Positions 734 to 64,000 are shown, counted from the stretch's first letter. The stretch: DNA of 64,000 nt from Candidatus Latescibacterota bacterium (GCA_965222605.1 OZ244960.1:5376001-5440000), one strand, 5' to 3'. Notes: generated from the sequence alone by a model not told the origin. Translations and numbers: made by a program.

Positions 734-830
734 CGGAGGTTCCTTTCGTTGAATGGCTTCTTGTTTAGTGAACAATTCAAGATAGCCGAGGAACCTCTTT
801 TTCGCTATTTAAAGTCACACATCACGTAGG
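1..830 (-). mobile_element. IS982-family insertion sequence, partial (continues past window start)
   Basis: Contains the transposase ORF below. The putative left end (minus-strand ..CTACGTGATGTGTG) is near 816-830; the right end is not in the window. Confidence 0.75.
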
Positions 831-854
831 CTTTAGTAAGTTTTGAGTTGTTCA

Positions 855-1844
855 TTATGACTTCCAGGGGATAGGTACATTGATCTCTGTGGCAATGCGT
901 TGCAACATGTCGAGATGTTCTTCGGTCAGCGGGATACCGCTTTGCTCGCGTGTTTGTTCGCGTTGCCATTCCAAACTGCCGGGGACTTCGGCGCTTGCCA
1001 ATCCCGGCATGGGGTTCAGTGACCGACTTTCGCGCAAAATGCGAGAAAGCTCCGTCTTGTAAGCTTCCAAATCGCCCAATCGAGCCACATCAATCGCCAC
1101 AATCATAAATCCTCGAGTGGCATTTGCAAATTTTGGTTTGTGCGATTCAGGTGTCGCTGTGCCCGCTAAAATACCCGCTAAGAACCACGATGTAAATCGC
1201 ATTCCCAAACTTTTAAAAATAAAATCTGGAAATGTCTGCAATGCCTCGGCGAGTTTGTTGCGGTCTTTCAGCATGTTCGCATTCATGTCCAGTACAAAAG
1301 GCGGGCCTTCTGCTGTTGGTATGCCAAAACACATCGGGGGTGCAGACATCGCATCCCATACCGTTGCATCGGGGCGCGTCGGTTTTTGCCAGGCGATTCC
1401 TCCTGCTACTGAAAAAGTCGCCAAATCGCGTGTTAGTCCCAGCCGCGCGTAAATCCCCGCACTGCCCACATGGCCGTGATTGCGCGTACACGCAACGGCA
1501 ATGCCATTTGTTTTTGCCTTTTCAATGACGGCCTCTGTTGCCCGTGTTGCCACGAGGTAACCCGCACCGCCGTCGCCGTCAAAAATCGCCATTGAAGGAG
1601 CATCCATGATTTGGGTAATTTCGGGCTGTGGGTTAATACGCCCTTCTCGAAACTCCGCCACATATCGGCGCAATTGGCGCGTACCGTGTGTGGCGACTCC
1701 GCGCAAATCCACATCTACCAGATAGCGCGCGATTAATGCAGCATCGCCATCGGGCAAATCGACTTTGCACAATACTTCGGTAGCAAAATCGCGCAACAGA
1801 TCAGGCATTATACGCCTGGCGTCTTTGGGGATATAAACGGGCAT
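855..1844 (-). CDS. Ldh_2 (malate/L-lactate dehydrogenase type 2) family oxidoreductase
   Basis: DLRGVATHG, DGDGGAG, RNHGHVGSAG motifs. Start reassigned to MPVYIP with a GGAG RBS. Confidence 0.85.
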   Translation of the reverse strand: MPVYIPKDARRIMPDLLRDFATEVLCKVDLPDGDAALIARYLVDVDLRGVATHGTRQLRRYVAEFREGRINPQPEITQIMDAPSMAIFDGDGGAGYLVATRATEAVIEKAKTNGIAVACTRNHGHVGSAGIYARLGLTRDLATFSVAGGIAWQKPTRPDATVWDAMSAPPMCFGIPTAEGPPFVLDMNANMLKDRNKLAEALQTFPDFIFKSLGMRFTSWFLAGILAGTATPESHKPKFANATRGFMIVAIDVARLGDLEAYKTELSRILRESRSLNPMPGLASAEVPGSLEWQREQTREQSGIPLTEEHLDMLQRIATEINVPIPWKS

Positions 1845-1866
1845 GGAAGTCTCCCATCTGAGGATG

Positions 1867-2886
1867 TCAGAAATCGTTTCGCACTTTCTCCGGCATTCCC
1901 GATCTGAGGGATGCCCAGCACGCAAGCCCCGTGGCGACGACCCTGGCTCCCTCGCGGACGCCAACCCAGGGTTTTGTGCCGTTCAGAACACAATCTGCCA
2001 TGTGCCGCAGCATGACGATCATCTCGCTGGCGTGGCCCCGCATGGATGAGAATTCTGCTGTGATCTTGCGCGAGGGCAGGTCGCCGGTTGGGTCGAGGCT
2101 TTTTACACCGTTGTGAATTGTGCCGCGGGTTCCATAGACGGTCAGGCTATTCATCGTGATGTCGTGCGGGTGTATGATACCGAGGAAATTTGCTATGCGT
2201 CCGATCTTTCCGGATTTGAACTTCACGTTGATGACGAAGTTGTCCTCCTGGGGATAGTCCGGGGAGACGCCGCTGCGCAGTCCGTAACAGTGGACTTCGT
2301 CGATGTCGCCCATAAACCAGCGCAGTAGATCGATCGGGTGGCAGGCGCCGCCCAGGATCAGGTCTTGCGGCATTTCGACCCGCCAGGGAGAGTAATCATA
2401 GACAGGGCGGAGGTCGTGAACGTAGTGGGCTTCGGCCATGAAGAGTTCGCCGATCTCCCCAGCATCGCAGGCGCGCTTTGCTTCGATGAAGTCATATCTC
2501 CCGCGCATACTCTGTGTGACGAGCAACACTTTTCCGGATCTGTCAACGGCTTCTACGACCTGCTCTACTTCTTCCATTGTGTACACCATCGACTTGGTGA
2601 CCATTACGTGCTTGCCCGCGTCGAGCGCGGTCAGGATTTGCTGTGCGTGGAGTGGCCCGGGCGTGTAGATGCCGATGATGTCGAGGTCTCTTCGCGCGAC
2701 CAGTTCGTCGAAGTCGGATGTGAGGGCGTCAATCCCGTATTCGTGGCCGAGTGCTTCGAGCTTGTCCTGTCGCGTGTCGCACAGGGCGGTGACGCGGATC
2801 GGCAGGGCACTGTTTTCCGGCTGGTTGGCGCCAAGCAGCGTTCTGCCGTGGCCAAGTCCGGCGACGCCGATGCGGAGGTGGCTCAT
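1867..2886 (-). CDS. Gfo/Idh/MocA family oxidoreductase
   Basis: IGVAGLG Rossmann motif, ALDAGKHV, HPIDLLRWFMG. Confidence 0.9.
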   Translation of the reverse strand: MSHLRIGVAGLGHGRTLLGANQPENSALPIRVTALCDTRQDKLEALGHEYGIDALTSDFDELVARRDLDIIGIYTPGPLHAQQILTALDAGKHVMVTKSMVYTMEEVEQVVEAVDRSGKVLLVTQSMRGRYDFIEAKRACDAGEIGELFMAEAHYVHDLRPVYDYSPWRVEMPQDLILGGACHPIDLLRWFMGDIDEVHCYGLRSGVSPDYPQEDNFVINVKFKSGKIGRIANFLGIIHPHDITMNSLTVYGTRGTIHNGVKSLDPTGDLPSRKITAEFSSMRGHASEMIVMLRHMADCVLNGTKPWVGVREGARVVATGLACWASLRSGMPEKVRNDF

Positions 2887-2947
2887 TTTCGTTTTTCTCC
2901 CGGTTGATATTGCTGATCGCGTTGTCAAAAAGGTATTCGAGGTGGAA

Positions 2948-4171
2948 CTACTGTTCTGTCCAACTCGCGATGAAGTCCGCAGTGCCGTAGTCCGCGGGCA
3001 TTTCGTTAAAGTAGTGTTTCATAGGGATGGACTGGAAGCCCGGCACAAAGTGTTCCTCGTCCGATTGGAGCAGTGCTTCGAGCGGACTGAATCGATCCCA
3101 AAGTGTGCATGCCTCATCAGAGGTGAATCGATCCGCGAATTTCGGTCCCCAGTTGAACGTGATGGGGTGTGTCCCCAGAACGCGGCGTTGGAGGTCTTCG
3201 GCGATTCCCCGAAGTGGGGGATTTTTTCGCTGTCGAATCGCAAGTGCCGCTTTGCAGAGGAAGACCGTTGACAGAATTCTGCCTTTTTCGGCTCGCTCCG
3301 GATGGAGGCGGTCCAGGGCGTTTAGATACGCGGTGCCATCTCTGGAGAGAACGGCTCTCAGCGCGGATTCCGTATGCTGCTTCATCTGTTCGCTGCGGTT
3401 GTTCCAGCGTGCGAACGCCTCCTGCGCCTGAGGAGATATGTAATTGGTAAACGAGAGGTCGTCGATTGAAGTGTGGGTCGAGAAGCCACCGTGAATGGTT
3501 CGCCGCATTTTGGGGCTGTAGTTGCTGCCCCAGTGGAGGATCGGGAGGATATAGACGACGCCGTCACCGGCTTCGAGATGGGTCTGCAAGGCATTGGGCA
3601 GCGGGCGGCAGGGATCTGCCAACAGTAGCTCGTTTTCTTCGGGGGTGTTCAACCGCAGATGACTGCCCGGTACCACCCAGAGGACGCTGTCGTCGTAGAG
3701 CGGGATGTTCCACTGGACGTAACGCGGACCTCCTTCGAGGATGTCGTCGATATAGCCCTGGAGCGGTGCTGTATCTATCGGATGGAGATCGCGGTGCCAC
3801 TTTGCCGGGCCGTGATGCCTGACGGGATTGCACATCATCATCATTTCTGTGACGGCTCCATCCGCTACATTGAGAAGCTCCGTGCTGACCCCGTGGATGT
3901 TCTCCTCGAGCCATACTTCGACTGCTGGCGCAGTCTCCTGGTCAATCTGATTGACGAGCGGCTGCCTTGAGAGTTGCAGGCGAGGCTGTGGCGCTGTTTC
4001 CCATACGCCTCCAGGTGGATCATTTTCTGCACGCTCGGCCTTCCAGTTTTCGCGTTGGCGGTTGACGAGCGTTTCGTACGCCTGACGCACGCGTTCGAGT
4101 TTGTCGCGTGGCACGGCTTCCTTAACAATGAGGTAGCCGGTTTCCAAGATTTCGTCGCGATTGAGTTGCAT
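2948..4171 (-). CDS. Phytanoyl-CoA dioxygenase (PhyH)-like protein with C-terminal extension
   Basis: WHRD, LWVVPGSH, ILHWG, RRTIH motifs. Confidence 0.8.
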   Translation of the reverse strand: MQLNRDEILETGYLIVKEAVPRDKLERVRQAYETLVNRQRENWKAERAENDPPGGVWETAPQPRLQLSRQPLVNQIDQETAPAVEVWLEENIHGVSTELLNVADGAVTEMMMMCNPVRHHGPAKWHRDLHPIDTAPLQGYIDDILEGGPRYVQWNIPLYDDSVLWVVPGSHLRLNTPEENELLLADPCRPLPNALQTHLEAGDGVVYILPILHWGSNYSPKMRRTIHGGFSTHTSIDDLSFTNYISPQAQEAFARWNNRSEQMKQHTESALRAVLSRDGTAYLNALDRLHPERAEKGRILSTVFLCKAALAIRQRKNPPLRGIAEDLQRRVLGTHPITFNWGPKFADRFTSDEACTLWDRFSPLEALLQSDEEHFVPGFQSIPMKHYFNEMPADYGTADFIASWTEQ

Positions 4172-4255
4172 AGCTGACTCCAATCGGGGTGAAGGAGTGT
4201 TAGTGCAAATGAATCTATTACACGTTGGTGCAAGCAGGGTACGGTGGGGAATCCC

Positions 4256-4285
4256 TTGACTTTCAAGAGGTCTCTGTTGTACTTT
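4256..4285 (+). promoter_or_regulatory. Putative sigma70 promoter of the TA operon
   Basis: TTGACT-18nt-TACTTT upstream of an AAGGAG RBS. Confidence 0.55.
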
Positions 4286-4326
4286 CGATTATCCCAAATA
4301 TAGCAAATCTATCAAGGAGAAACGAG

Positions 4327-4560
4327 ATGTCTGCGCCATCTCTTCTTGCTGAATTAGAAGAAAACATTCGTCGGTTGTCTTTAGATGATCAATTGTTGCT
4401 TATTGAGCGGATGAGCCACCGGATACGAACTGATATTTCTGGTAAAACTGATATAGATGCTCAATTGAGTGAAATGGCCGCTGATCCTGAAATCCAAAAG
4501 GAACTTCAGGAAATTGAGCATGACTTCTCAGCCACAGAGCAAGATGGGCTGGATGATTAA
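4327..4560 (+). CDS. Putative antitoxin of the MazF module
   Basis: Small protein with an acidic C-terminus; stop overlaps the toxin start (TAATG). Confidence 0.7.
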   Translation: MSAPSLLAELEENIRRLSLDDQLLLIERMSHRIRTDISGKTDIDAQLSEMAADPEIQKELQEIEHDFSATEQDGLDD

Positions 4561-4907
4561 TGGCTATTGAGCGTGGTGAAATATACTTCGTGAACCTCAA
4601 CCCGGTGAAAGGACGCGAGCAAGCGGGCCAACGTCCTGTATTGGTTCTGTCCATAGATGCAATTAATCGCTTGCCTCTTGTCGTGACCGTTGTTGTAGGT
4701 ACCAATGGTGCCAACATCACACGGGATTATCCTACAAATATTCGACTGAAGTCAGCAGAAACGGGTTTAGATTTGGAAACTGTTTTCCTTGGGTTTCAGA
4801 TTCGATCATTGGATTCAAAACGTTTTCCGGATCATGCAACAGGTCGAATTTCAGGAGCAACTTTAGAAAAAGTGGAAGCTGTTGTTCGGTATTGTCTCGG
4901 TCTGTAG
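4560..4907 (+). CDS. mazF: PemK/MazF family toxin
   Basis: RGEIYFVNLNPVKGREQAGQRPVLVLS, QIRSLDSKRF. Confidence 0.92.
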   Translation: MAIERGEIYFVNLNPVKGREQAGQRPVLVLSIDAINRLPLVVTVVVGTNGANITRDYPTNIRLKSAETGLDLETVFLGFQIRSLDSKRFPDHATGRISGATLEKVEAVVRYCLGL

Positions 4908-6327: not shown

Positions 6328-7410
6328 TTACCTCGGCTCGTTGGGATATAAATCCCCTACATATTGGTCATATCCGTTGAACAGCAGAGTCGGACGCATT
6401 TCGGGGTTCGAAGCATTGGTGGTGATGAACCGTTCCTGGGCTTGAGACCACCGGGGATGATCGACCTTGGGATTGACATTGGCAAAGAAGCCGTATTCCC
6501 TTGGGACGAGCGTATTCCAAAAGGTTCTCGGTTGATCGCGGACAAACTCAATGCTCACAAGTGATTTGAGGCTCTTAAAACCGTACTTCCAGGGCACGAC
6601 CAGGCGGATAGGCGACCCGTGCTGGTTGGGCATTTCGTGACCGTAAATTCCCGTGCCTATAAAAGCGAGTTCGTTTGCCGCTTCTTCAATCGTCAGCCCC
6701 TCAACATAGGGCCAGGGCCACTGGGGATTGTTAAACTGTCCAATAGCCTGATTTGGGTCCAAAAAGGTTGTCATCTTGACGAATTTTGCTGTAGAAAGCG
6801 GTTGCACCGCGTCTAAGAGCGCTTTCATCGGAAAACCAGTCCAGGGTATCGCCATAGACCAGGCCTCCACACACCGCAAGCGGTAAAGCCGCTCTTCCAG
6901 CGGCAGAGTGCGGACCAGATCGCCAAAATCGTATGTCTTTTCCTGCGGGACCTCTCCTTTGATTACCACTGTCCAGGGGTCTGTCATGAAGTTTTCCGAT
7001 AGGGGTTTCACCAGATCCTTTCTGGTGCTGAATTCATAAAAATTATTGTACGATCCGGCAATTGACTCCTCGGTTAAAGGCCGGTCCAGTTCCTTGAATT
7101 CATCATTGAGCCTGGCAGGATAAAGCGGTTGCGGTGGCTGTGGTGGCTGCGGCGGTGGCGGTGGTTGCGGCGGTTGTTGTGGCGGCTGCGGCTGCGGCGG
7201 TTGTTGCGGTGGTTGTGGCTGTGGCGGTTGCTGAGGCTCCTCAGTCGGCGTAGAGGGTGGTTTTTCAGCAGGGGAAAAAATCCTCTCATGCCCGCAGCCT
7301 GTTAGTAGCCCCACCGCGCCTCCTGCGGCCATCATAAACTTCCGCCGGTTCATATATACATCTTCCGGCGTCGCCTCTCTCTCGGGTATTTCCCAACCTC
7401 GTTTTGGCAT
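6328..7410 (-). CDS. msrP: Protein-methionine-sulfoxide reductase catalytic subunit (YedY/MsrP)
   Basis: NRRKF Tat motif, YNNFYEF, RLRCVEAWSM, PWKYGFKS, YGFFANVNP, HPRWSQA. Confidence 0.93.
   Translation of the reverse strand: MPKRGWEIPEREATPEDVYMNRRKFMMAAGGAVGLLTGCGHERIFSPAEKPPSTPTEEPQQPPQPQPPQQPPQPQPPQQPPQPPPPPQPPQPPQPLYPARLNDEFKELDRPLTEESIAGSYNNFYEFSTRKDLVKPLSENFMTDPWTVVIKGEVPQEKTYDFGDLVRTLPLEERLYRLRCVEAWSMAIPWTGFPMKALLDAVQPLSTAKFVKMTTFLDPNQAIGQFNNPQWPWPYVEGLTIEEAANELAFIGTGIYGHEMPNQHGSPIRLVVPWKYGFKSLKSLVSIEFVRDQPRTFWNTLVPREYGFFANVNPKVDHPRWSQAQERFITTNASNPEMRPTLLFNGYDQYVGDLYPNEPR
7126..7236 (-). repeat. Pro/Gln-rich coding tandem repeat in msrP
   Basis: Encodes PQQPPQPQPPQQPPQPQPPQQPPQPPPPPQPPQPPQP. 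Confidence 0.9.
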
Positions 7411-48475: not shown

Positions 48476-48514
48476 AGCTATGCCTCGCTCTTCTATGTGG
48501 GAAAGACAGCTTGC

Positions 48515-49077: not shown

Positions 49078-49533
49078 TTATTCAGACTTACGACAGGAAA
49101 AAACGACGATATCATGCTCCGATGGTTCGGTGTCCCCGTAAGCTTTCGTCGTCTGTATATCCATAAATCCTGCGGTACGTAGCATTTCTTCAAATTCAAC
49201 TGTGTCATAAAACCGTTCATTATAGTCGAACAGTTCAGTCGTAGTGAGTTCTCCATTCATATACACTTCATATTTGGTTAGGTTGCGAATGACTCGTCCA
49301 CCGTCTCTTTCAGACCATAATGAAGTAATCCAAACGGTCGAACCATCAAGCCGGTCTTCGATTTCAATTTCCGTTTCGCCTGATTTTCCAAACTCACCTT
49401 CTTCAAGTGGCGTCTTGACGTCCAGAACAAACCATCCACCGGGCAAGAGATAGTCCCAGAGTTTCTGGAGAGATTTCCGAGCAGATTCCTTTTCATAGAG
49501 ATGACCAAATGAACGGTCCGGGATGAAAATGAA
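49078..49533 (-). pseudogene. C-terminal part of a SAM methyltransferase, 5' end replaced by a GNAT gene
   Basis: IFIPDRSFGHL...YLLPGGWFVLD; motif I absent. Confidence 0.8.
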
Positions 49534-50074: not shown

Positions 50075-50150
50075 TTTGGCCTTCCTCAATTCATAGCCTC
50101 TTTTCAAAAAAAATCACATCAAACCCGGATATCTTCTGTCGTTCTATTTC
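50075..50150 (-). repeat. 3' remnant and downstream flank of the GNAT at 62752-63210
   Basis: Near-identical to 62735-62810; encodes EIERQKISGFDVIFFEKRL*. Confidence 0.88.
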
Positions 50151-50155
50151 CAAAG

Positions 50156-50893: not shown

Positions 50894-51199
50894 ATTTCGT
50901 CTCCAATCTCGGATCACTTTGCCGGGGTGGGGTTGGGGGCTTTCACAGAACGACAAGCCTGAGATCAAATCATGATATATTCCGCTATCAGTTTCTTCAA
51001 CGCTTTGCCTTTTTCAGCTATCTCCTGACTCTCAAAATGTCGAATTTCAAAAAGTCTCACTAAACTCTCATAAAGATCCGCAATCTCAGAATCTCAACAA
51101 TCTGTTCATTAATCCGCTTATCATAGGCAATAGGAGTGCATCCGTATTTGTTGAATAGAAAGGCCTTCAAACATAATCCTATCTACAAGCAGGCGGCGT

Positions 51200-52222: not shown

Positions 52223-52258
52223 TGTCCTTAGTTTCTGGTGACGAACAAACCGATTCAG

Positions 52259-52338
52259 ATATACGAGATATCCTACAGGATACCCGTAGCCCTCGGTTTG
52301 GAAGCCCTCGGGGCCAGCACCACCGGCTCTCACCCCCT
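52259..52338 (-). pseudogene. Second, 3'-truncated copy of the allo-tRNA-like gene
   Basis: Matches 46399-46477, and the upstream flank also matches to about 52401; T arm, 3' acceptor strand and CCA are absent. Confidence 0.88.
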
Positions 52339-52400
52339 GCTCAATAATTCGACGATATCATAAAATGGAATGTTTCGGCTGGGATAGGGAAGACTACACA

Positions 52401-52979
52401 TTATTTGTCTCGAAGCGCGTGGATCCATTTGTCCCGATACAAGAGAAATACAGACCGCTCGGGCAATGTGCGGTCCTCAAATTCATCTCTACCCGGTCCG
52501 GGGGGTACACGCTCAGTCTCCTCGAAACCCAGCCGGTGGAGAAGCCGGACAGACCGTTTGTTTGCAACAACGCATCTGGCTTCAATCTCGTCCAGGCCCA
52601 AATCTTCAAAACCTACCTGTAGGATGCTCCGGACAGCCTCTGACGCAAAGCCCTGACCCCAATAAACGGGCGACAATTCGTAGCCTATGTCACCCCGCTG
52701 GCTCTCAATGCTTTCTGTGCGTACTCCACAGTCACCGAGTAATATCCCATTTGAGCGGTTCGTGATGGCCAACTGGAACTTGCATCTGGGACTTTCTTTG
52801 GACCATGCGATACACTTATCTACAAAGCGGACGCACTCCTCTCTGGTGTAGGCGGGCCGGTAGTAGTATTCCAGATACCTTGGGTCCCTCCTGAACTCGG
52901 CGATGGCGTCCACGTCTTGTTTGGTGAACTCTCTCAGAAGCAAGCGTTCGGTCAGCTTTTCCATATAGATCCAGTTCAT
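52401..52979 (-). CDS. RimJ/RimL-type GNAT (copy 2)
   Basis: Near-identical to 49493-50074; start at 52979 (ATGA overlap) or 52964. Confidence 0.88.
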   Translation of the reverse strand: MNWIYMEKLTERLLLREFTKQDVDAIAEFRRDPRYLEYYYRPAYTREECVRFVDKCIAWSKESPRCKFQLAITNRSNGILLGDCGVRTESIESQRGDIGYELSPVYWGQGFASEAVRSILQVGFEDLGLDEIEARCVVANKRSVRLLHRLGFEETERVPPGPGRDEFEDRTLPERSVFLLYRDKWIHALRDK

Positions 52980-54214
52980 GATTCTTTGTCTTCGATATGA
53001 ACAACAGACGGAATCATCCGAGCAGATGTTCCAAGAACGAGGGTCAGTAATCCTCCTGCTAAGAACCACGGCTGCGGGCCAAATACATCGGTTACGGGAC
53101 CTATCACGATGAGACCGAGCATCGTTGTAGACTGCACGGAACTATGAAGAGCGCCAAATACGCGGCCTTGTAGATGGGGATCGACATTGGCCTGAAGGAG
53201 CGCCCGGAGAGGCGCGTTGATAAGCGAGCTACCGACGCCGCTTAAAGCTATGCCTATGATGGCTAAAGCAAGACGGGTATGAGGGGCTATACCTACGAGT
53301 ATTGTTCCAATGCCATACACAATCCAGCCGAAGATCGTCGTCATGATTCGGCGACGGAATCCACCCCAAGCCCCAACCAGAAGGCCTCCCAAGACAATGC
53401 CCGCTCCCCATGCAGAATTAAACCAACCAAGTTCGGTAGCACCTCCATTGAAGTGATCTGTTATCAAGAGGGGCGAGATGGTCATCTTCGTGTTCCCAAA
53501 TATGTTTAATACGGCAGCAATCAATATTAAGTTCCGAAGACCAGGCCATCTCCACAAATAACGAAATCCTTCCAGCATATCAGCCCATATTCCACTCCCT
53601 TGGCTATGCTTCCCCTCCATCCTTTTTGGCTGTGGAATCCAAATGAAGAGGAGAGGACCGATAGCAAGCATTGCCGTCAAAACATCGATGGCCAATATGA
53701 GATGTATCTCAAACACAGCCAATGCTATTGCTCCAAGGGGAGGCCCTCCCATACTGAGTACTCCATGCAGGGTTTGATTCGTCCCCTGGATCCTGGCCAG
53801 ATGTTTTTCGGGCACCATCAGAGGCGTGGAAGTTATCATCGCCAAGCCTTGAAATGCACGGCCAATACTCGCAAGGAAGTTTACTGCGTAGATATGCCAG
53901 ATCTCGATAATTCCCATCCAGAAAAGACCAGCAAGACCGGCCATGGCTATCGCAACAAGCGTATCCGAGACGATCATTACAATTCGGCGGTTCCATCTAT
54001 CGTTCAGTGCGCCAATGATGGGAGCCAAGAAGACTTCTGGTAGATAGGCGACAAGGACTGAGGTCGCGAGAATGGTCGCAGATCCTGTCTTTTCTGTAAG
54101 CCACCACACCAGAGCAAACTGTGCAACTTGAGTTCCAAAAGACGACAGCGTTTGTCCCGTCCATATGGTAAAAAAGCCGCCAGCCCATGCCCCGTCTCTA
54201 TTCAGATGAATCAA
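52976..54214 (-). CDS. MFS transporter (Mef-like macrolide-efflux family)
   Basis: IWTGQ.LS.FG, FALVWW..TGSA, DRWNRR, QGRVF. Confidence 0.92.
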   Translation of the reverse strand: MIHLNRDGAWAGGFFTIWTGQTLSSFGTQVAQFALVWWLTEKTGSATILATSVLVAYLPEVFLAPIIGALNDRWNRRIVMIVSDTLVAIAMAGLAGLFWMGIIEIWHIYAVNFLASIGRAFQGLAMITSTPLMVPEKHLARIQGTNQTLHGVLSMGGPPLGAIALAVFEIHLILAIDVLTAMLAIGPLLFIWIPQPKRMEGKHSQGSGIWADMLEGFRYLWRWPGLRNLILIAAVLNIFGNTKMTISPLLITDHFNGGATELGWFNSAWGAGIVLGGLLVGAWGGFRRRIMTTIFGWIVYGIGTILVGIAPHTRLALAIIGIALSGVGSSLINAPLRALLQANVDPHLQGRVFGALHSSVQSTTMLGLIVIGPVTDVFGPQPWFLAGGLLTLVLGTSARMIPSVVHIEDKES

Positions 54215-54257
54215 TTATCTCTCCTTTTACTATACAAATATGGATTCCCTGCATGGC

Positions 54258-54340
54258 GTATAACGTCTCGCGTATCCCCGAAGCCGAGAAGCGGTTTGAG
54301 GGGGTGGGATTAGGTAGTATCCGGAGCTGTGGTGTTATAT
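54258..54340 (-). repeat. attC-like site (83 bp), diverged copy of 61315-61397
   Basis: ATATAAC...GAGAC-GTTATAC; shared sequence with the 61.3 kb copy extends to about 54396. Confidence 0.65.
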
Positions 54341-54398
54341 GTTATGACAGTTTTGTGATCATTCAAAGAAGAAAGGGGACGTCATCACTTTTCTTTTC

Positions 54399-54477
54399 TT
54401 AGAGATGGACTGCTAGCGTTTTGTTTCATGATTGGCTTAAAAATTCTCTACTATTTTAATGGGGGGTGCGGGACACG
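54399..54477 (+). promoter_or_regulatory. Repeated promoter module P (copy a)
   Basis: Similar to 60597-60657 and 62355-62434; TTGGCT-17nt-TTTAAT. Confidence 0.6.
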
Positions 54478-54564
54478 ATGAAACAGACTGTGGATGCCGT
54501 ATATGAAAATGGAGTCTTCAAACCTTTGAAACCTCCTGAACTATCTGAGGGTCAGCACGTTCGT
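54478..54564 (+). pseudogene. N-terminal remnant of a DUF104 antitoxin
   Basis: MKQTVDAVYENGVFKPL..EGQHVR, then similarity to the 62435 copy ends. Confidence 0.85.
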
Positions 54565-54686
54565 TTTTCGATCATTACACAGTATGAGATTCTACGCGGC
54601 CTGCCATTCCCTCATTGCTTTCTCTCGCGGATTTGTTCATATAAGGAGCAAGCCGTTGTTATCTTTTTAAAACAGGAGGTTACTGG

Positions 54687-55667
54687 ATGTCCAAACCGCT
54701 TTATCAACTGGACTGGCAGCGTCAGGAGCAGCCGGTTCTGTCGGGGATGACCACAAACCAGGACTGGTGCCGGGTGACGGTGTACAGCCCGGCCGTTCTC
54801 CGTATGGGCGATACGTACAAAATGTGGTACCTGGGCAACCGAACGGCCACGCGTACGAGCGATATGGATCTGGGGTATGCCGAGTCCCAGGATGGGCTGA
54901 CCTGGACGCCACATCCGGACAATCCGATCCTCAGCGGCGGGTTGCCGTGGGGCCGTGCGTGGCAGACGCCGCACGTGATCTTCGACAGCGATGAGAATCT
55001 TTACAAGATGTGGTTCGTGATGGCCGACAGCCATCCGGGTGAGGGGGGCAGGGCGATCGTTCTGGGGCAGAAGCTGGGGTATGCGACCAGCTCCGACGGT
55101 CTGGCATGGGAAGCCTACCCCGAGCCGATCTATCCGAGCGGGCGGGGGCCGTGCGTGTTGAAGGAGGGGCCGAACGCCTACCGGATGTGGATGTGTTCAT
55201 CCCCCAGTCCGGACGGAGAATTTGGAGATCTGGTCGGGAATATCTACCACTTCGAATCGGCCGACGGCATCGCCTGGACGCGGGACCCCGAACCGATGAT
55301 CCAGGCCACGGAAACACGCCAGAGCGTGATCTATCCGAGCGTTTTGCGGGACGAGCGGGGGTATACGATGTGGTACGGGTGCCATGTGGAGGGGGGAATC
55401 TTCGAGCTTTTCTGTTCGACGTCGGAGGACGGGCTGAATTGGACGCACCACCTAAAGGAGCCTTCGTTTCCCGCAACACGCGATCCGAACGATTTCGACG
55501 GACGGTACACGTCCACGCCATGCGTGCTGGACGACGGCGACCGTTACCTGATGTACTACTCCGCCCGAGACTGGGGAAACCTCTACCGGGCCGGGGACGG
55601 GACGATTAAGACCGACGGCGCGGGCATTTACCGCCACATCGGGGTGGCCGTATGTCCGAAGAAATAA
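54687..55667 (+). CDS. Five-bladed beta-propeller glycoside-hydrolase-like protein
   Basis: Repeated P.V...Y.MWY...YA.S.DG..W blades. Confidence 0.8.
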   Translation: MSKPLYQLDWQRQEQPVLSGMTTNQDWCRVTVYSPAVLRMGDTYKMWYLGNRTATRTSDMDLGYAESQDGLTWTPHPDNPILSGGLPWGRAWQTPHVIFDSDENLYKMWFVMADSHPGEGGRAIVLGQKLGYATSSDGLAWEAYPEPIYPSGRGPCVLKEGPNAYRMWMCSSPSPDGEFGDLVGNIYHFESADGIAWTRDPEPMIQATETRQSVIYPSVLRDERGYTMWYGCHVEGGIFELFCSTSEDGLNWTHHLKEPSFPATRDPNDFDGRYTSTPCVLDDGDRYLMYYSARDWGNLYRAGDGTIKTDGAGIYRHIGVAVCPKK

Positions 55668-55744
55668 ACCGCGACAAGATGAGATCGGGGCGTCAATAGT
55701 GCACACGCCATAGACCTGTTTTTTTCTTTTGACTCTTCTTTTCC

Positions 55745-55798
55745 CGTTTGCGCTCAAGCGCTCGGTTTACCGTCTCGCTGTGCAACGCTTTGTTGGGC
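55745..55798 (-). repeat. Near-complete attC site lacking the TT of R'
   Basis: TAG overlaps GCCCAAC-AAAGCGTTGCA...TTGAGCGCAAAC-G|GG. Confidence 0.65.
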
Positions 55799-57564
55799 TA
55801 TACTGATTTACTTTCTTTTTTGAGTCGCTCTTTCACCCAGCGATATTCTCCCAGATGGTTTCGTTGCTCCTCCGTGACCAATCTGTCCAGGGCGGCTCTT
55901 CCTAGCCTGTCTTGTACTTGCTGATAGTATAGGCTGGCTGGTGTAACGCGGGTGCCTGCCTCATCGCTCTTGCCAGAACCGATCACCCAGCTGATTCCGT
56001 CTGGGGGTGCTTCCACGTCGAATCCCGGAGCGACACAGTTATAGAAACAGGTCTGAGTTCCGGCCCACCCATGACCGGTACCAGAGTTGCCTCGGAACCG
56101 TGATTCCATTCCCCGCTCAGATTTTACATTGTCGAACAGGGTACCAACAGAATAGCGATGGTGCGGACCCGCAGAAGACTTGGTGTCGAATCCAATACAA
56201 TCGACGAAGACGTTGGGCCCTGCCGTTCTTTCCTGTGTGACAAATTCATGGCGTCCGTTATAGGCAAGGCAACGTTGCACCAGATTCAGTTGCCCATCAA
56301 TCATGAATGTGTAGCGACGACCGCCGACGATTTTTGACGCATGACCAAGATTGACACAGTCTTGTACAGTTGCACGCTTGCCGGAAGCAGAGACCAAGGA
56401 CCAACCGAAATAGTGTCCCGTGACGTTACGTACCCAGGTATTCTCGGTATTGCTCTTGAGTTGGACCCCATGCCAGGCGTGGTTTTCAGCCCGACTCGTT
56501 TCCGTAAGGTTTCCGTAGGGATGATCAGGAGCAGGTGCGGCGAACTCTGAAACCAGGAGCATGTTTTCAACACCGACTTCAGTCACACGTCCTGCTGGCT
56601 CGTATTGGTAGATTGCGCCTCCGCCATATTGATGCTCCATCGGATGGACGATTGGGGCATCAACAATGATGCGGTTTGCATCAACTCCAATGATACGACG
56701 TTCAAAATAGAGATCATAGTCTCCGGCTTCCCATTGTCTGGTAAAGTCAAATGTCTTCCCATCCTCAGACAAAGGTACCCGCTTAACAAAGTCGTCCCAG
56801 GATTCATCTGGCTTCTGCAGCAGACAGTACTTGCTATGACTGTCAAGACGTTGGTAGTAGAAGCCTGCTGCCTCGTCGTCCTTTACCCAGCGCACGTTAC
56901 GAACGCCAGCCCACCTGGGTTTCAGTTTATCGCAACCAATGAGATGGATCCAATCCGCCGTTGATGGCCTATGCACGACAATTCGATCTCCGGGCTTATA
57001 GCCTGAAGCCGATTTCACTTCAAAGGAATGACTCCCGATAGGAACATAAGCATCGACGATCGCCTGCCTGGAATCCGTTACCAGTTTTATTTGGTCCGTC
57101 GGGTATCCATGTAGGATATGAGCCTCGAGATTGTCTGATTTGGGACTAACCGTGATCAACGCCCGCTGGTATTTCTGGTCGTCGTAACCGGTGGCAATGA
57201 TGATGGTGTCATCCGGGCCGTCGCCTTCGCCCCTGAGAACAATACCACTGTGCGTAATTGTAAGCGTTCCCTCGACTCGGTAAACGCCACGCTTGAGCAA
57301 CAAAGCCCCGCGAAAGCCAACCTTGTCAGGCGGGAAGGTACTCAGTTTATCCAGCGCATCCTGGATGCGCTGGGTATCGTCACCATGACTCGATTCAAGG
57401 GTAATTTTCACAGGGACGTGAGGAATCGCCCTTTCGCCGGAATGATAGCCTACATGGGAGAAGTCAGGGAGACGGTTGCCCTTTGGGTCCTTCAAGTAGA
57501 TCAACTTTCCTGACGGATCAAGATGGTACAGATTGCTTGTGCTGCGGTGTGTCGATGTCTTCAT
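55798..57564 (-). CDS. Pectin-lyase-fold polysaccharide-lyase-like protein
   Basis: LPDFSHVGY, DDT.RIQ.ALD, SGIVLRGEG, GRH.F, SGTGHGWAG. Confidence 0.8.
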   Translation of the reverse strand: MKTSTHRSTSNLYHLDPSGKLIYLKDPKGNRLPDFSHVGYHSGERAIPHVPVKITLESSHGDDTQRIQDALDKLSTFPPDKVGFRGALLLKRGVYRVEGTLTITHSGIVLRGEGDGPDDTIIIATGYDDQKYQRALITVSPKSDNLEAHILHGYPTDQIKLVTDSRQAIVDAYVPIGSHSFEVKSASGYKPGDRIVVHRPSTADWIHLIGCDKLKPRWAGVRNVRWVKDDEAAGFYYQRLDSHSKYCLLQKPDESWDDFVKRVPLSEDGKTFDFTRQWEAGDYDLYFERRIIGVDANRIIVDAPIVHPMEHQYGGGAIYQYEPAGRVTEVGVENMLLVSEFAAPAPDHPYGNLTETSRAENHAWHGVQLKSNTENTWVRNVTGHYFGWSLVSASGKRATVQDCVNLGHASKIVGGRRYTFMIDGQLNLVQRCLAYNGRHEFVTQERTAGPNVFVDCIGFDTKSSAGPHHRYSVGTLFDNVKSERGMESRFRGNSGTGHGWAGTQTCFYNCVAPGFDVEAPPDGISWVIGSGKSDEAGTRVTPASLYYQQVQDRLGRAALDRLVTEEQRNHLGEYRWVKERLKKESKSV

Positions 57565-59842: not shown

Positions 59843-59892
59843 GTTTCATTCCTTCCTTGGACAAGGTTAAGCATCAAGACCAGATAAGCTGT

Positions 59893-59985
59893 AGATCCAT
59901 TTGTCCCGACACAAGAGAAATACAGACCGCTCGGGCAATGTGCGGTCCTTAAATTCGCCTCTACCCGGTCCGGGCGGTACACGCT
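59893..59985 (-). pseudogene. 3' fragment (third copy) of the RimJ-type GNAT
   Basis: Encodes RVPPGPGRGEFKDRTLPERSVFLLCRDKWI, near-identical to the ends of both full copies. Confidence 0.9.
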
Positions 59986-59987: not shown

Positions 59988-60536
59988 TTAGACTGTATTA
60001 TGCCTGGACTCAAATTCTGCTCGCAAAATTCCGAATAAGAGCCTGTCCCAACGTCGATTGGACCAATATAGAGCCTCACGCTCGCACCCTTCCTGAGTAA
60101 ACCCGAGCTTCTCGAGAACTCGGATGGCACCCGTATTATTGGAGGTTGTCGCAGCCGAAATCCTGTACAAGTCCAAATGTTCAAACCCAAATCGTAGTAT
60201 TACCAGTACGGCATCTGTGCAGTACCCCTTACCTCTATCCTTCCTACGGGCAATGCCAGCACCGAGGCTGGCGGTACGATTTCTCAAGTCGATTTCCGAC
60301 AACTGAATATCGCCAAGAAGATTTCCATCTGGACTGAAGATGCCCAGGTAAACTTGAGTCTTTCCCTGCTGCTCCTGGATTTCCTCGAACCATTTTTCTG
60401 AGCCCTCGAGTGAATGACCAGGCCTGACTGGTTCAGTCGGGATTGGCTCTTCGAGCTCATAATGTTCCCAAAGGGTGCGGCAATGCTCGCGTTCCATTGT
60501 CCGCAATACCACTTTTTTACCACGCAACTCGATCAT
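59988..60536 (-). CDS. RimJ/RimL-type GNAT
   Basis: DRGKGY, N..AIRVLEKLGF..EG..RE. Confidence 0.92.
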   Translation of the reverse strand: MIELRGKKVVLRTMEREHCRTLWEHYELEEPIPTEPVRPGHSLEGSEKWFEEIQEQQGKTQVYLGIFSPDGNLLGDIQLSEIDLRNRTASLGAGIARRKDRGKGYCTDAVLVILRFGFEHLDLYRISAATTSNNTGAIRVLEKLGFTQEGCEREALYWSNRRWDRLLFGILRAEFESRHNTV

Positions 60537-60566
60537 GAGAGGTAACCTGTTGACAGATTTTCGATA

Positions 60567-60657
60567 TTGAAAACCATCTATATTCTTTTATATTCATTAG
60601 AGATGGATTGCTATCGTCTTGTTTCAAGATTGGCTTAAAAGTTCTCAACTATTTTAA
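60567..60657 (+). promoter_or_regulatory. Repeated promoter module P (copy b)
   Basis: Similar to 62324-62414 but placed in front of an unrelated gene. Confidence 0.6.
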
Positions 60658-60680
60658 ACCGCCTAAGACAAGGAGGAATC

Positions 60681-61154
60681 ATGCTACGAGTCAGCGACCC
60701 TATCGTTCAGAAGTACATCGATTCCGAGTTCGGGCAGCGATGTCTCTACGAGGGAACGCATTGCACGGAGTGTGTGAGGGAAGAAGACAAAGAGATATGG
60801 GGAGTCGGTGATGCACCTTCCTCCTCAGCTTATCCGGGCTTAGCGGCTCGAAAGTTCATTAAAGCTCACGAGATCCACGAAGAACTTGGCCTTGCAAGCC
60901 CGGCCGAGATTACCGGCGTAGGCATATTGAATGAGCTATCTGCTCACACAACAGCTAAGACTCGGGATTCCCTCTGGTACGAAGCTCACGGAAGCGAAGG
61001 TGGCATCCCCGTCTGCATCAGGCCGTGTATGTGGCAGGCTGGGCAAGATGTACTTGACATCGCGATCCTTGAATCCATGCTCCAACGGAAGGAATTGGGA
61101 ATCGCCACCGAAATGCTGTCTCGTTTCCTGGCCAGGATTGCGGAGCATAGGTAA
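60681..61154 (+). CDS. Hypothetical protein
   Basis: Strong AAGGAGG RBS, 157 aa. Confidence 0.7.
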   Translation: MLRVSDPIVQKYIDSEFGQRCLYEGTHCTECVREEDKEIWGVGDAPSSSAYPGLAARKFIKAHEIHEELGLASPAEITGVGILNELSAHTTAKTRDSLWYEAHGSEGGIPVCIRPCMWQAGQDVLDIAILESMLQRKELGIATEMLSRFLARIAEHR

Positions 61155-61314
61155 TCAGCGATTCCAGCCCGATTTTTGCCATAGTATAGAGAAGTAATCC
61201 AGGCTTCCTGAATCTGACTGTGCATTAAGGTCTAAGGGAAAGAATGCGGGAGAAGCCAGAAAGTAGTATCTGGCCCTCCCGTTTTTTCGTGCGTCAAACG
61301 AACTCACTGCTTGC

Positions 61315-61397
61315 GGCTAACGGTTCCCACATCCCCGAAGCCGGGAAGCGGTTTGAGTGGGGGAGGGGAGATGGTGTCCGGAGTTGTGGTGTTATAT
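61315..61397 (-). repeat. attC site (83 bp), best preserved in the window
   Basis: ATATAAC-A-CCACAACTCCGGA ... TTCGGGGATGTGG-GAACC-GTTAGCC; 12 of 13 positions pair (counting G-T). Confidence 0.75.
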
Positions 61398-61454
61398 GTT
61401 GTGACAGTTTTATGATCAGCAAAGAAGAAAGGGAACGTCATCACTTTTCTTTGT

Positions 61455-62240
61455 TCACTTCTTTCGAGCGAGCCAAATCTGTTCACCTCCATACAGATAA
61501 GGACCCCGATGAAAGTTTCCATACAACGCCAGAATCTGATATCCACACAATTCTAGTAGATACTGCATTTCGTTCTTATAGATATGTCGTGTCGTACCGA
61601 CGTTATGAATCCTTGAAATTGTCTCGCCAGATTTGCTAATTTCTTCATAAGTATAATGCCATTCTGAAATTTGGGTCTCAAGATCACATTTTCGACTTCC
61701 CCAAAGTATAACACGATTTCCCGTCTCCGGATGATTCAACTCTTGTAGCTTTTTCAATGCTGTACCTCCACCAGATGCGGAGACAAGCTCATCCAAACTG
61801 GGATCACCATTATGTATTATCAGAAGTCCATTATCTAAAAGATGCTCATTGATGCACAAAAGGGACTTTCTTTGGTCTTCTGGTGTTAAGATATGGTGGA
61901 AAGCTCTGTAGGGAATCAAGATGGTGTTGAATCGGTTTTTCAGCGAAAAATCACGCATGTCGCCTGCAACGAGGTTTATACGCTCCTGAACTTCATTACT
62001 GAGCTTCGAGACATTTTCGTTCGCTAATTCAAGCATCTCAGAAGATGGCTCAAGCCCAAAAACATCTAAACCGGATTCAGCCATTGGGATCAGCACTCGC
62101 CCTGTCCCACATCCGAGTTCCAAAACTGGGCTTCCCGCATTCTGGACTTCTTGAATATAAAATTCTATATCATCTTTTGTTTTCAGTGCGTCTTCTCGAG
62201 CATCATAGAGTTTAGCTCTGATACCTCGATAACCTTCCAT
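61455..62240 (-). CDS. Class I SAM-dependent methyltransferase
   Basis: VLELGCGTGR, GDMRDF. Confidence 0.93.
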   Translation of the reverse strand: MEGYRGIRAKLYDAREDALKTKDDIEFYIQEVQNAGSPVLELGCGTGRVLIPMAESGLDVFGLEPSSEMLELANENVSKLSNEVQERINLVAGDMRDFSLKNRFNTILIPYRAFHHILTPEDQRKSLLCINEHLLDNGLLIIHNGDPSLDELVSASGGGTALKKLQELNHPETGNRVILWGSRKCDLETQISEWHYTYEEISKSGETISRIHNVGTTRHIYKNEMQYLLELCGYQILALYGNFHRGPYLYGGEQIWLARKK

Positions 62241-62323
62241 AAAACCTCCACAAAATCACACATCAAGTGAGTTGTATATGGTTGAAAATAAATATCTTAC
62301 AAGAATATTGCTTGATGCTAAAT

Positions 62324-62434
62324 TGAAAACCAGCTATATTCTCTTACATCTCATTAGAGATGGACTGTTAGCGTTTTGTTTCATGATTGGCTTAAAAGTT
62401 CTCAACTATTTTAATGGGGGAGGTACGGGACACG
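62324..62434 (+). promoter_or_regulatory. Repeated promoter module P (copy c)
   Basis: TTGGCT(62387)-17nt-TTTAAT, GGAGG RBS. Confidence 0.6.
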
Positions 62435-62671
62435 ATGAAACAGACTATGGATGCCGTATATGAAAATGGAGTCTTCAAACCTTTGAAACCCCCTAAATTG
62501 TCTGAGGGTCAGCACGTTCGTATTGAAATAGAAACGCCTTTTGAAGAGAGTTTCGATGATCTTCTTGAACTGGCTGCAAAGGTCTATGAGGGACTCTCCG
62601 ATGACGACATCGACAGCATTGAGAAGATTGCACACGACCGTCGGGACTTTTTCGGAGATAGGACCCAATAA
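62435..62671 (+). CDS. DUF104/AF2212-like antitoxin
   Basis: AVYENGVFKPL..L.EGQ.VRI; followed only by TAATG MALPK*. Confidence 0.85.
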   Translation: MKQTMDAVYENGVFKPLKPPKLSEGQHVRIEIETPFEESFDDLLELAAKVYEGLSDDDIDSIEKIAHDRRDFFGDRTQ

Positions 62672-62751
62672 TGGCCTTACCCAAATAGGCCCGGGGTCGT
62701 CACCAACAATGAGAGACATTTTCAACGGATTCCCTTTTGGCCTTCCTCAAT

Positions 62752-63210
62752 TCATAGCCTCTTTTCAAAAAAAATCACATCGAACCCGGATATGTTCTGT
62801 CGTTCAATTTCACAATATCCGTTCTTTTCATATAGTTTGCGAGCCGCAATCTGCTGCACTGTTGTATCCAGGCAGAGTATTTTATACCCCAAATCATCTG
62901 CTCTCATCTCAAGTCTATTCAGAATCGTCTGACCAAATCCTCGTCTTTGAAAATCAGGATGAACGCGCATCCTTTTAATTTCTGCCTTGTCATCTAAAAT
63001 TCGTTGCAAGGCACCCATTGCAACCAATTTCTCTTCGCAGAATCCTGCTAAAAACTCGCCTTTGTCAGCTATATATGTCTCTTTAATAGCATGAAGGTCA
63101 TTGTCTTGAGTGCCGCTACCTGCATTCGCTCCAACCTGATCCAGTGCTAAGTTGTGTAGATTCCAGACTTCATTGTGGTCAGAAGCCTGATAACGACGAA
63201 TTTTCAACAT
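62752..63210 (-). CDS. GNAT family N-acetyltransferase
   Basis: AEIKRMRVHPDFQRRGFG, LYEKNGY; true start MLKIRR. Confidence 0.92.
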   Translation of the reverse strand: MLKIRRYQASDHNEVWNLHNLALDQVGANAGSGTQDNDLHAIKETYIADKGEFLAGFCEEKLVAMGALQRILDDKAEIKRMRVHPDFQRRGFGQTILNRLEMRADDLGYKILCLDTTVQQIAARKLYEKNGYCEIERQNISGFDVIFFEKRL

Positions 63211-63224
63211 GAATATTCCCTCTT

Positions 63225-63385
63225 TGTGACCTTTGTTGTCATCGGAGCAGTTGAGATAAAAGGCGAGGATCTTCCCGTCTTCATACTCGACGAGTGCGTG
63301 CCCGAGATTTCCGCTTCTTCCCGTCTGGGAGTGATCGACGAAGAGAATCCCATCGTTCGGCGGGTTTTTCGGGATGACATCAATC
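63225..63385 (-). pseudogene. Fragment of a sialidase-like (BNR) protein N-terminus
   Basis: GILFVDHS..GRSGNLGHALVEYEDGKILAFY.NCS with no start or remainder. Confidence 0.45.
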
Positions 63386-63946
63386 GGTAAGAAAGAACGT
63401 TCCCCTCTTTTTGAACCGAAAACTCTCATCGGGTACGACGAACGCCAGTTTATCACATAAAAAAGAGCCAGACGGAGCTGAATTTTGGAGCCTTGCACAA
63501 AGCTCAAGGCTCTCGTCTATGGATATGAACTCGGCGATGGTCATGTGCGGAGCTATGTTGCGCCTGTGATACGCTTCGCCGGAAAATGCCGATGTCCCGT
63601 GGAGGATCTGCTTTAAATTATCGATAGGCTCTTGTGGCCTTATAGGATACGAGACACCAGGGTGCCTGGTTGAGGCATGCGGCTTGTCGTAATAAAGAGT
63701 GAATGGCTGGACATCAGTAATGACGTTGTTGATTTCATTGATAAGATTAGGCGTCATTTCCCGGCTCAAGGGATCTGACAAAGATATGTGCGTCGGACAA
63801 GAGGCAGCTGAGCGGAGATCATACTTTGCTCGCAAGAGGTCGATCTCCTGCGATACCTCTGAAGGGGGCATGATAAGGATGAGGCCAAATCGGTAGTCGC
63901 GTTGCCAATCTTCCCACTTCGATGTGTCTTTTACGTATGGAATCAT
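63380..63946 (-). CDS. 2H phosphoesterase (2'-5' RNA ligase family)
   Basis: THISL and PHMTI motifs. Confidence 0.88.
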   Translation of the reverse strand: MIPYVKDTSKWEDWQRDYRFGLILIMPPSEVSQEIDLLRAKYDLRSAASCPTHISLSDPLSREMTPNLINEINNVITDVQPFTLYYDKPHASTRHPGVSYPIRPQEPIDNLKQILHGTSAFSGEAYHRRNIAPHMTIAEFISIDESLELCARLQNSAPSGSFLCDKLAFVVPDESFRFKKRGTFFLTD

Positions 63947-64000
63947 GATGAACTCTCACGAGGTGTCAGACAGGTTCTATTGAGGTTATGCGTCTCAGGC

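Follow-up and report, generated by a model that had tools for sequence, protein, structure and literature searches.

Two kinds of described system come closest to the locus analysed here, a stack of co-oriented accessory genes that fills nearly all of a 64,000-nucleotide stretch of DNA (the window, positions 5,376,001-5,440,000 of a single 6.34-Mb contig, GCA_965222605.1 OZ244960.1) from a Candidatus Latescibacterota bacterium, for whose genome G000 serves as the working name. In additive flexible genomic islands, as outlined for Alteromonas by Lopez-Perez and Rodriguez-Valera (2016, PMC4898812), the number and order of cassettes are independent of phylogeny, near-identical cassettes occur across species, and partial tRNA repeats are often present. 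The other kind comprises sedentary chromosomal integrons and attC clusters that have no integrase (CALIN), the latter being proposed in the account of Cury et al. (2016, PMC4889954) as a possible step towards the stabilisation of cassettes.

With additive islands, to the extent that the Alteromonas study describes them, the locus shares a fixed place, flanked by conserved genes, in which the combination of cassettes varies, near-identical cassettes across species, partial repeats of a putative tRNA-like sequence and the invocation of illegitimate recombination. It departs from that description in that its units are mostly single open reading frames (ORFs) trimmed to their ends, almost all co-oriented and never changed in orientation, in that no functional tRNA, integrase, integrative and conjugative element or integron is present at the site, and in its very large size (200 families in nine genomes). 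With sedentary chromosomal integrons and CALIN, in the features treated by Cury et al. (PMC4889954), it has in common a one-way stack of mostly promoterless genes, toxin-antitoxin (TA) modules, cassette-type cargo, and shuffling and presence or absence of genes among relatives, with the upstream end most variable. Unlike those systems as presented there, it has no intI, no model-supported attC in the window and apparently no attI, a kind of site for which a general model does not exist, and half of its junctions are too short for one; gene fragments at junctions and context-dependent module ends set it apart as well. A third process, the insertion of cassettes by the integrase at non-att genomic sites (attG), where they can be expressed from host promoters (summarised by Loot et al., bioRxiv 10.1101/2022.09.11.507474), could explain a single attC-bearing gene of a relative discussed below; as set out in that preprint it needs an integrase and keeps the attC, and it does not explain attC-free shuffling in genomes without integrase.

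Read from its sequence alone, the stretch had been taken either for a domesticated integron array whose cassettes were locked in by attC deletion or for an integrase-independent capture locus (hereafter, the sequence-only reading). The second proposal fits better than the first and corresponds largely to an additive flexible genomic island. With a probability of about 0.5, we consider the window to be most of such an island, present in one clade of an uncultured genus. Its unusual features are the strict one-way packing, the trimming to ORF ends, shuffling without inversion, and the absence of an integrase, a recognised tRNA gene or a site.

Gene order and orientation in relatives

Our gene set consists of 68 curated genes, obtained from an ORF list and Pfam scans of 74 ORFs. 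The stack and the two parts into which it was split, at the HAD gene 40388-40993, are:

830-64000, minus strand: co-oriented accessory stack (60 genes on the minus strand, 8 on the plus strand) that belongs to a variable zone of 77 kb.
40994-64000, minus strand: "hot" upstream part, made of 0.5-2 kb modules whose order differs in every genome; 146 of 345 adjacencies (42%) kept.
830-40993, minus strand: "backbone" part, mostly collinear in nine genomes; 968 of 1132 adjacencies (86%) kept.

The 60 minus-strand genes among the 68 agree with the figure of about 60 put forward earlier. DNA searches with window positions 1-60000 against 21 genomes of the genus (60001-64000 was covered in the later comparison of arrays) showed that about 16 of the 21 hold window genes at 85-99% identity, at one locus each. 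Gene order was compared among nine single-contig genomes, G000 and eight relatives, with 100 kb taken from each relative, using crude longest-ORF calls grouped into families at 70% identity and 70% cover, with single-copy families only; the 36 genome pairs are not independent, so that the figures describe a pattern and are not a test statistic.

The variable zone is bounded by a pyridoxal-phosphate (PLP) decarboxylase gene (family 53) and a gene encoding a 650-aa protein (family 161). In G000 it overhangs the window by about 9.9 kb on the left and about 3.1 kb on the right. In ten genomes the same two families bracket 43-96 kb of variable content, which is the additive-island trait of a fixed place with changing cassettes. 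Of the genus's 21 genomes, 16 have family 53 and 14 have family 161; beyond the genus, the searches gave no family 53 and, for family 161, nothing but more distant matches in two genomes. The genes of the upstream flank are metabolic (PLP decarboxylase, a PhyH-family protein, an aminotransferase). Between the flanks, the nine genomes hold 200 families of at least 100 aa, 90 of them confined to a single genome and 17 common to all nine.

Within the zone, shared genes keep their adjacency in 1137 of 1513 cases, versus 285 of 285 in the flanks. Changes in the backbone are insertions or deletions of single or few genes and local moves, and most of the repeated linkers and gene fragments described below lie in the hot part. 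Orientation, by contrast with order, never varies: it agrees in all 1549 pairwise comparisons of shared single-copy genes, and of 345 DNA matches 250 bp or longer, 343 lie on the same strand, the two exceptions both belonging to an insertion sequence. Eight families that always lie in the reverse direction, present in 3-9 genomes and in 2-9 contexts, never flip either; one of them, family 54, occurs in nine genomes and nine contexts. The locus is not a conserved operon cluster, in which order would be kept in relatives, and in the upstream third order is not conserved. Relatives hold the same genes in other orders, none inverted, in line with the exchangeable, integron-like one-way stack that had been postulated; co-oriented units that vary in order and presence among relatives are indeed an integron-type trait.

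Limits of the modules and joints between them

Homology between the genomes breaks at the ends of ORFs. Although intergenic DNA makes up 11%, 133 of 196 block ends are intergenic, and several of the 63 "intragenic" ends coincide with ORF calls that start too early. Left ends lie mostly 0-46 nt 5' of a start codon and right ends mostly within about 45 nt of a stop codon; a module often consists of a ribosome-binding site and one ORF, tightly packed. Two modules illustrate such limits:

29734-31048, minus strand: sulfatase module, from exactly 19 nt 5' of the ATG through the stop codon.
45109-46205, minus strand: LD-carboxypeptidase module, whose DNA is 97-99% identical across several species, versus 88-93% for its neighbours.

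The first is found at this place in four genomes and about 3.3 kb away (in G000 coordinates) in five, in the same orientation. The 5' limit of the second is at the ATG or no more than 11 nt from it in four contexts; in three of these an upstream ORF, in two cases truncated, ends with a stop codon that abuts or overlaps the ATG. The LD-carboxypeptidase gene itself (45143-46204, with counterparts in G080 and at positions 2398-3579 of the record L083 introduced below) has no Shine-Dalgarno-like sequence that can be recognized by eye, and its layout suggests that it may be translated by coupling to the upstream ORF. Together with a DUF4838 module that is 98% identical at a remote place of genome G083, it exhibits the near-identical cassettes, uncoupled from their neighbours, of additive islands. 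The LD-carboxypeptidase module is also carried, at 98% DNA identity, by a record outside the 21 genomes searched, L083 (OZ244560.1, 5.02 Mb, labelled Candidatus Azotimanducaceae). The same record has a 5' piece of a NUDIX gene and spacers of the array, at 90-94%; either this is a labelling matter or array modules have spread beyond the genus.

Other limits are less exact. "Empty" sites contain 0-38 nt of unrelated filler, the limits of one and the same module shift by a few to tens of nucleotides among contexts, left partners are cut at arbitrary points within genes, and neighbours leave fragments behind, such as 27-45 nt of a GNAT 5' end located 3' of a NUDIX gene. The shifting limits and leftover fragments speak against a single precise crossover site. 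Many units are, moreover, large or multi-gene, for example a 3.7-kb DUF1592/DUF1552 pair.

Rearrangement can also be followed in present-day populations. Public runs of several studies contain 50-71% of the words of window positions 36001-46000, and alternative joints were read from metagenome contigs of three other studies, compared over 36001-56000. A single methyltransferase gene is missing at joint 43430>44301 (two runs), 34 other letters stand in for four genes at 41157>44887, and 48593>55677 omits 7.1 kb; 46503>52419 fuses two direct copies of a tRNA-like repeat, deleting 5.9 kb. Joints 55685>52422 and 55685>49533 are re-orderings, and 46205>44748 is the arrangement found in the independent genome record L083. 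A single metatranscriptome run (X15) yielded short contigs at 36.6-40.3 kb and at a few other places; carry-over of DNA is possible, and the run is evidence neither for nor against long read-through transcripts.

Recurrent elements at the junctions

The junctions have no shared motif: 8-mer enrichment over 415 forward-forward spacers (median 53 nt) returned ribosome-binding-site words only. An all-against-all comparison of 306 junction types revealed several unrelated recurrent elements rather than a single motif, and similarities between junctions without a common gene are direct in 184 pairs and inverted in 2. Fifty-five junction types, all from the upstream part, form one cluster. The sequence ACGCATAAC seemed enriched in spacers genome-wide and was rejected as a candidate, its excess stemming from the ends of an insertion sequence. 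The recurrent pieces that could be delimited in the window are:

59891-59985, minus strand: copy of a GNAT 3'-end fragment, from the Acetyltransf_3 paralogues at 49493-50107 and 52401-53069.
54461-54567: copied 3' part of ORF 62411-62725.
62730-62826, minus strand: recurrent linker, with a second copy at 50069-50165.
62354-62420, plus strand: repeated element beside plus-strand ORFs, also at 54399-54465 and 60597-60663.
46376-46478, minus strand: tRNA-Sec-like element (Rfam RF01852, 37 bits, threshold 47).
52259-52423, minus strand: partial direct second copy of the tRNA-like element and its upstream sequence.

The first two bear out the earlier remark that junctions hold fragments of genes. 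GNAT gene ends are among the recurrent pieces, and the ends of paralogous genes, like the linkers, repeat in direct orientation. In relatives, the linker at 62730-62826 is found 5' of a NUDIX gene (G073) and of a GNAT gene (G073, G083), and among the genomes compared it also lies 5' of a small ORF. A pair of sigma-70-like hexamers, TTGAAA-16-TATATT at 60567-60594, overlaps the 60597 copy of the plus-strand element, and such a pair adjoins the 62354 copy. The tRNA-Sec-like element matches the full model, with an 8-nt anticodon loop and two mismatched pairs in the anticodon stem, and is not called by ARAGORN; the true tRNA-Sec of G000 lies elsewhere and scores 73 bits. At least five relatives have the element in their arrays as well, in varied gene contexts; it is perhaps a tRNA in decay, or else a tRNA-like gene of an unusual kind. 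At gathering thresholds, Rfam models returned nothing in the window, and the counts of promoter-like and terminator-like sequences equal those of shuffles.

Proposed mechanism

The most economical mechanism combines general recombination between direct repeats, exchange among related arrays and steady deletion, and we hold the chances of its being right and wrong to be evenly balanced. General recombination, whether homologous, short-homology or illegitimate, between co-oriented repeats within or between arrays would reshuffle the modules. Direct repeats would generate duplications, deletions, excised circles and re-insertions, and inversions would not be expected because the repeats are direct. 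Exchange with related arrays would supply new genes, and foreign DNA, integron cassettes among it, would be captured on rare occasions. Deletion would steadily trim non-functional DNA, attC included, to the ends of ORFs, favouring stop codons that abut the next start and thereby permitting translational coupling, and co-orientation would let upstream promoters read through promoterless genes.

Several points weigh against the island reading. Its mechanism is one that we infer rather than observe. Duplicates in transit, counted at 70% protein identity, are scarce: G000 has none, G072 has one duplicated family along with an inverted pair of duplicates, and G083 has a single duplicated family, a number below what a pure duplication-and-loss model would lead one to expect. 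Many junctions have no detectable repeat or microhomology, and homologous recombination at linkers therefore cannot explain all moves. The exact module ends (19 nt 5' of the ATG to the stop codon in one case, the start codon in four contexts in the other) are more regular than random deletion and selection would be sure to make them. The strict orientation of reverse genes that have their own promoter could equally indicate a dedicated directional mechanism. The orientation figures, finally, cover this one locus among the islands of these genomes, and share the crude ORF calls, the 70%-identity families and the 36 non-independent genome pairs of the order comparison.

Integron components and the relic-integron alternative

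The foremost rival explanation holds that the locus is a relic sedentary chromosomal integron, in which an ancestral intI, attI and array were followed by loss of the integrase, deletion of attC sites one by one and fixation of the cassettes, so that differences among relatives would be mostly inherited, with later deletions. The position of the most shuffled third at the upstream (5') end of a co-oriented stack is an integron-like polarity, cassette-typical cargo (GNAT, methyltransferases, TA pairs, glyoxalase, NUDIX) accords with this account, and so does the possible stabilisation step proposed, in outline, by Cury et al. 2016 (PMC4889954). A few small genes of the array have homologues 49-60% identical in true cassette arrays of the class, and the integrase is known in the phylum, with intI matches over the cut-off in 17 of 168 genomes, and, in broken form, in one genome of the same family.

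The integrase itself is missing where this account needs it, as the sequence-only reading had noticed for the window. No match to the integron integrase model TIGR02249 exceeds the cut-off (265 bits) in the whole 6.34-Mb genome, where the best is an 88-bit match plus a 62-bit piece in the same frame, belonging to an XerC/D-like frame of 313 aa at 2.66 Mb, far from the window, that misses model positions 182-243. The same model found intI in 0 of the 20 other genomes of the genus, which makes 0 of 21 with G000, and three of the phylum's IntI proteins, used as tblastn queries, matched no intI or intI pseudogene in nine arrays, nor beside the G000 array. A relic intI at the locus was thus considered and rejected, both on these empty searches and because the sole intI of the family, a broken one in genome G062, belongs to another locus: it adjoins the orthologue of G000 position 3.358 Mb.

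Other recombination enzymes were sought as well, including beyond the right end of the window, where the sequence-only reading had advised looking for a recombinase or reverse transcriptase. None of ten arrays has a tyrosine recombinase (PF00589) inside it or less than about 20 kb away, and no serine recombinase or reverse transcriptase was found in the five arrays tested, G000 having none anywhere. At G000 5467899-5468895, about 28 kb right of the window end and about 25 kb from the flank, an insertion-sequence-rich, G000-specific insert contains two short C-terminal fragments of tyrosine recombinases; both share 42-43% identity, over 63-71 aa, with the final part of an IntI from the class, and they are too short to separate an integron integrase from other members of the family.

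To search for attC, sites were taken from a true array adjoining the intI of G157, a genome of the same class, where 124-128-nt sites are repeated and the consensus hairpin has compensatory changes in 14 of 27 pairs. Covariance model R1 was built from this array and R2 from 19 sites of three genomes; both derive from one class of the phylum and are lineage-specific, which is the main limit on the negative result that they gave. With filters off, neither model has a credible match in the 64 kb of the window, the top scores (10.4 bits for R1 and 15.8 bits for R2, E-values 1.3 and 0.16) falling inside genes. As a positive control, 12 kb of a true array gave 11 sites with R2, versus a single attC in the 880 kb of arrays and flanks from the genus. 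The shortest attC sites measure about 55-60 nt, and 33 of the 67 junctions in the window are shorter than 50 nt; half of the junctions therefore cannot hold an attC. The idea that attC sites are mostly erased or absent holds up on both counts. Within the reach of these one-class models, the window has neither an attC after nearly every gene, nor intact sites at most junctions, nor the two or more attC within 4 kb, with no integrase near, that define a CALIN, and tools that count attC would miss the locus, as had been anticipated.

The handful of attC-like sites singled out earlier did not survive. Pairs of R boxes (xxxxAAC...GTTxxxx, at least 6 of 7 positions complementary) occur in 29 of 299 junction types versus 23.0 +/- 4.1 in shuffles, which is chance level, and the sites picked by eye fail both models:

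45018-45142, minus strand: spacer containing a small hairpin and two boxes, GCATAAC...GTTATGC, that pair perfectly (7/7) at a distance of 95 nt; picked by eye, fails R1 and R2.
54252-54342, minus strand: attC-like relic A, with ATAAC...GTTAT ends; its halves pair poorly and no model matches.
61309-61399, minus strand: copy B of relic A, 87% identical; A and B are both G000-specific.

By blast and nhmmer, the eye-picked relics A, B and C have copies inside the window only. A scan for AAC...GTT hairpins was tried and set aside, the strict version giving none and the loose one about 15 per 20 kb per strand, which recovers true attC and is too noisy. R2 run over whole genomes of the genus gave nothing among the 150 scored of about 1000 candidates per genome, and it located no attC next to 80 LD-carboxypeptidase homologues from other phyla, or next to 80 metagenome homologues of the methyltransferase gene discussed next, two results that say little for a lineage-specific model. 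Our literature search returned no paper joining integron, attC and Latescibacter*.

The single attC of the genus's arrays is instructive. Located directly 3' of a methyltransferase gene in G073, in cassette orientation, it is 59 nt long (R2, 24 bits, E-value 0.013), is closely similar to the short attC of true integrons of the class, with the last box altered, and is the sole match of nhmmer searches with such short true sites. In the G080 copy of the gene, the last 10 codons and the attC are gone, and the new stop codon overlaps the ATG of the LD-carboxypeptidase gene. The pair shows a captured integron cassette becoming an ordinary chromosomal gene through attC loss, a step proposed in the integron literature and rarely seen directly, and it is an example of what follows the integrase-less attC clusters as Cury et al. 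(PMC4889954) portray them.

This one case is what supports the notion of a domesticated array locked in by attC deletion; telling against it are the absence of any intI remnant from nine arrays and of a tyrosine recombinase in or near ten, the position of the family's sole intI at another locus, and reshuffling that is ongoing among species without integrase and in metagenome populations. Recent exchange, seen in modules 96-99% identical in differing contexts and in the alternative joints of present populations, sits badly with cassettes long since fixed, as do the frequent gene fragments at junctions and the many large or multi-gene units. We consequently judge a relic integron to be unlikely.

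Other explanations

A further possibility is that the island is a working integrase-independent gene-collecting array, from which units of a ribosome-binding site and an ORF are excised and re-inserted one way without an attC-like site, and in which captured cassettes are stripped of their attC. We regard this as quite unlikely; were it true, a second and unrelated solution to the task of the integron would exist, in a clade that lost or never had integron integrases. A related and very doubtful explanation invokes an undescribed mechanism dedicated to capturing and shuffling such units, with insertion in one direction and no long structured site, driven by an integrase-independent or a remote factor. 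The uniform orientation in all 1549 comparisons, genes with their own promoter included, the exactness of some module ends, the near-identity of single modules between species and the failure to find a known recombination site or enzyme are all compatible with it. The heterogeneous recurrent spacer elements, which leave no common junction motif, the shift of a module's junction by a few to tens of nucleotides between contexts, the arbitrary cuts inside left partners and the lack of a candidate enzyme linked to the locus tell against it. The idea that these are ordinary strand-biased operons, their shuffling an artefact of paralogue confusion or of chimeric assembly of strain mixtures in metagenome-assembled genomes, is the least probable of all. 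In its favour, 4% of 64-kb windows are equally biased, neither GC spread nor spacer length departs from what is typical of the genome, several of the genes are paralogues (GNAT, methyltransferases, MFS) and all genomes are metagenome-assembled. Against it, the counts were restricted to single-copy families, DNA blocks with 88-99% identity correspond one-to-one inside the locus, the flanks in the same assemblies are fully collinear (285 of 285), and short-read contigs of other studies show like joints, one of them (46205>44748) matching an independent record.

We return, then, to the additive flexible island as the preferred reading. Integron finders count attC, and island finders seek integrases, tRNA genes and odd composition, none of which this island has, yet its pan-set comprises at least 200 accessory families in nine genomes, with gene-by-gene turnover. 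If strict one-way packing and recombination between direct repeats suffice for integron-like shuffling, a sizeable share of the flux of accessory genes in uncultured phyla may pass through loci that present tools leave unflagged. With ten complete versions and population joints in public metagenomes, the locus is a good natural data set for the study of island rearrangement.

Strand bias, composition and cargo of the window

The strand bias of the window is -0.76, equalled by 4% of the 64-kb windows in G000, and is hence unusual without being unique. The genome as a whole is divided about 50/50 between the strands, and the concern that it might be as strand-biased as the window does not apply. 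Cumulative GC skew places the origin near 3.0 Mb and the terminus near 0/6.3 Mb. Co-orientation with replication was considered as a cause of the bias and rejected: by GC skew the minus-strand stack is head-on to replication, and fork co-orientation cannot, for that reason, explain it. The local GC skew at 5.2-5.45 Mb is negative, unlike the remainder of that replichore.

Neither composition nor spacing distinguishes the locus. The standard deviation of GC3 per gene is 0.094 in the window versus 0.080 genome-wide, 10.8% of gene runs of equal size are equally heterogeneous, and the mean GC of the window is that of the genome; the visible differences in GC from gene to gene that had been reported are thus a normal spread for G000. 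Short spacers, also reported, are real (the 33 junctions under 50 nt) and not special to the locus, being a habit of the whole genome, in which the median co-directional spacer is 33 nt and spacing classes are about those of the zone.

The cargo is as mixed as had been claimed. By Pfam it includes seven GNAT acetyltransferases, six SAM methyltransferases, three sulfatases and two MFS transporters, with HAD, NUDIX, HIT, glyoxalase, PhyH, aldo-keto reductase, esterase and beta-lactamase-fold proteins, an APH-type kinase, the LD-carboxypeptidase and the DUF1592/DUF1552 pair. Two TA pairs and an insertion sequence complete it:

4225-4907, plus strand: MazEF-like TA module, inverted, with the PemK toxin at 4560-4907; missing at that place in G072.
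20303-20997, minus strand: HigB/HigA-like pair (Gp49 toxin family and HTH_3) in array orientation; both families seen in G000 only.
1-829, minus strand: insertion sequence with a DDE transposase, interrupting the array; 100% identical copies elsewhere in G000.

The TA genes had been described as inverted, which is right for the MazEF-like module and wrong for the HigBA-like one. The insertion sequence at 1-829 and a copy at G000 5471766-5472594, about 32 kb right of the window end, are direct and 100% identical, and bracket about 95 kb that include most of the array and the upstream flank. The stretch from the upstream flank to the second copy is G000-specific and holds many IS66/IS3 transposases, a HEPN protein and an AAA-ATPase/PD-(D/E)XK protein.

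Two genes of the window have features of their own. Inside the molybdopterin-oxidoreductase gene 6328-7410, a GC-rich 9-nt periodic repeat at 7110-7250, with 11 overlapping copies, probably encodes a low-complexity linker. The plus-strand sulfatase gene 33176-34363 matches its profile at positions 1-214 of 301 only, and the DNA matches of relatives over it all stop at 33998-34002; this gene has probably been shortened or frameshifted in G000.

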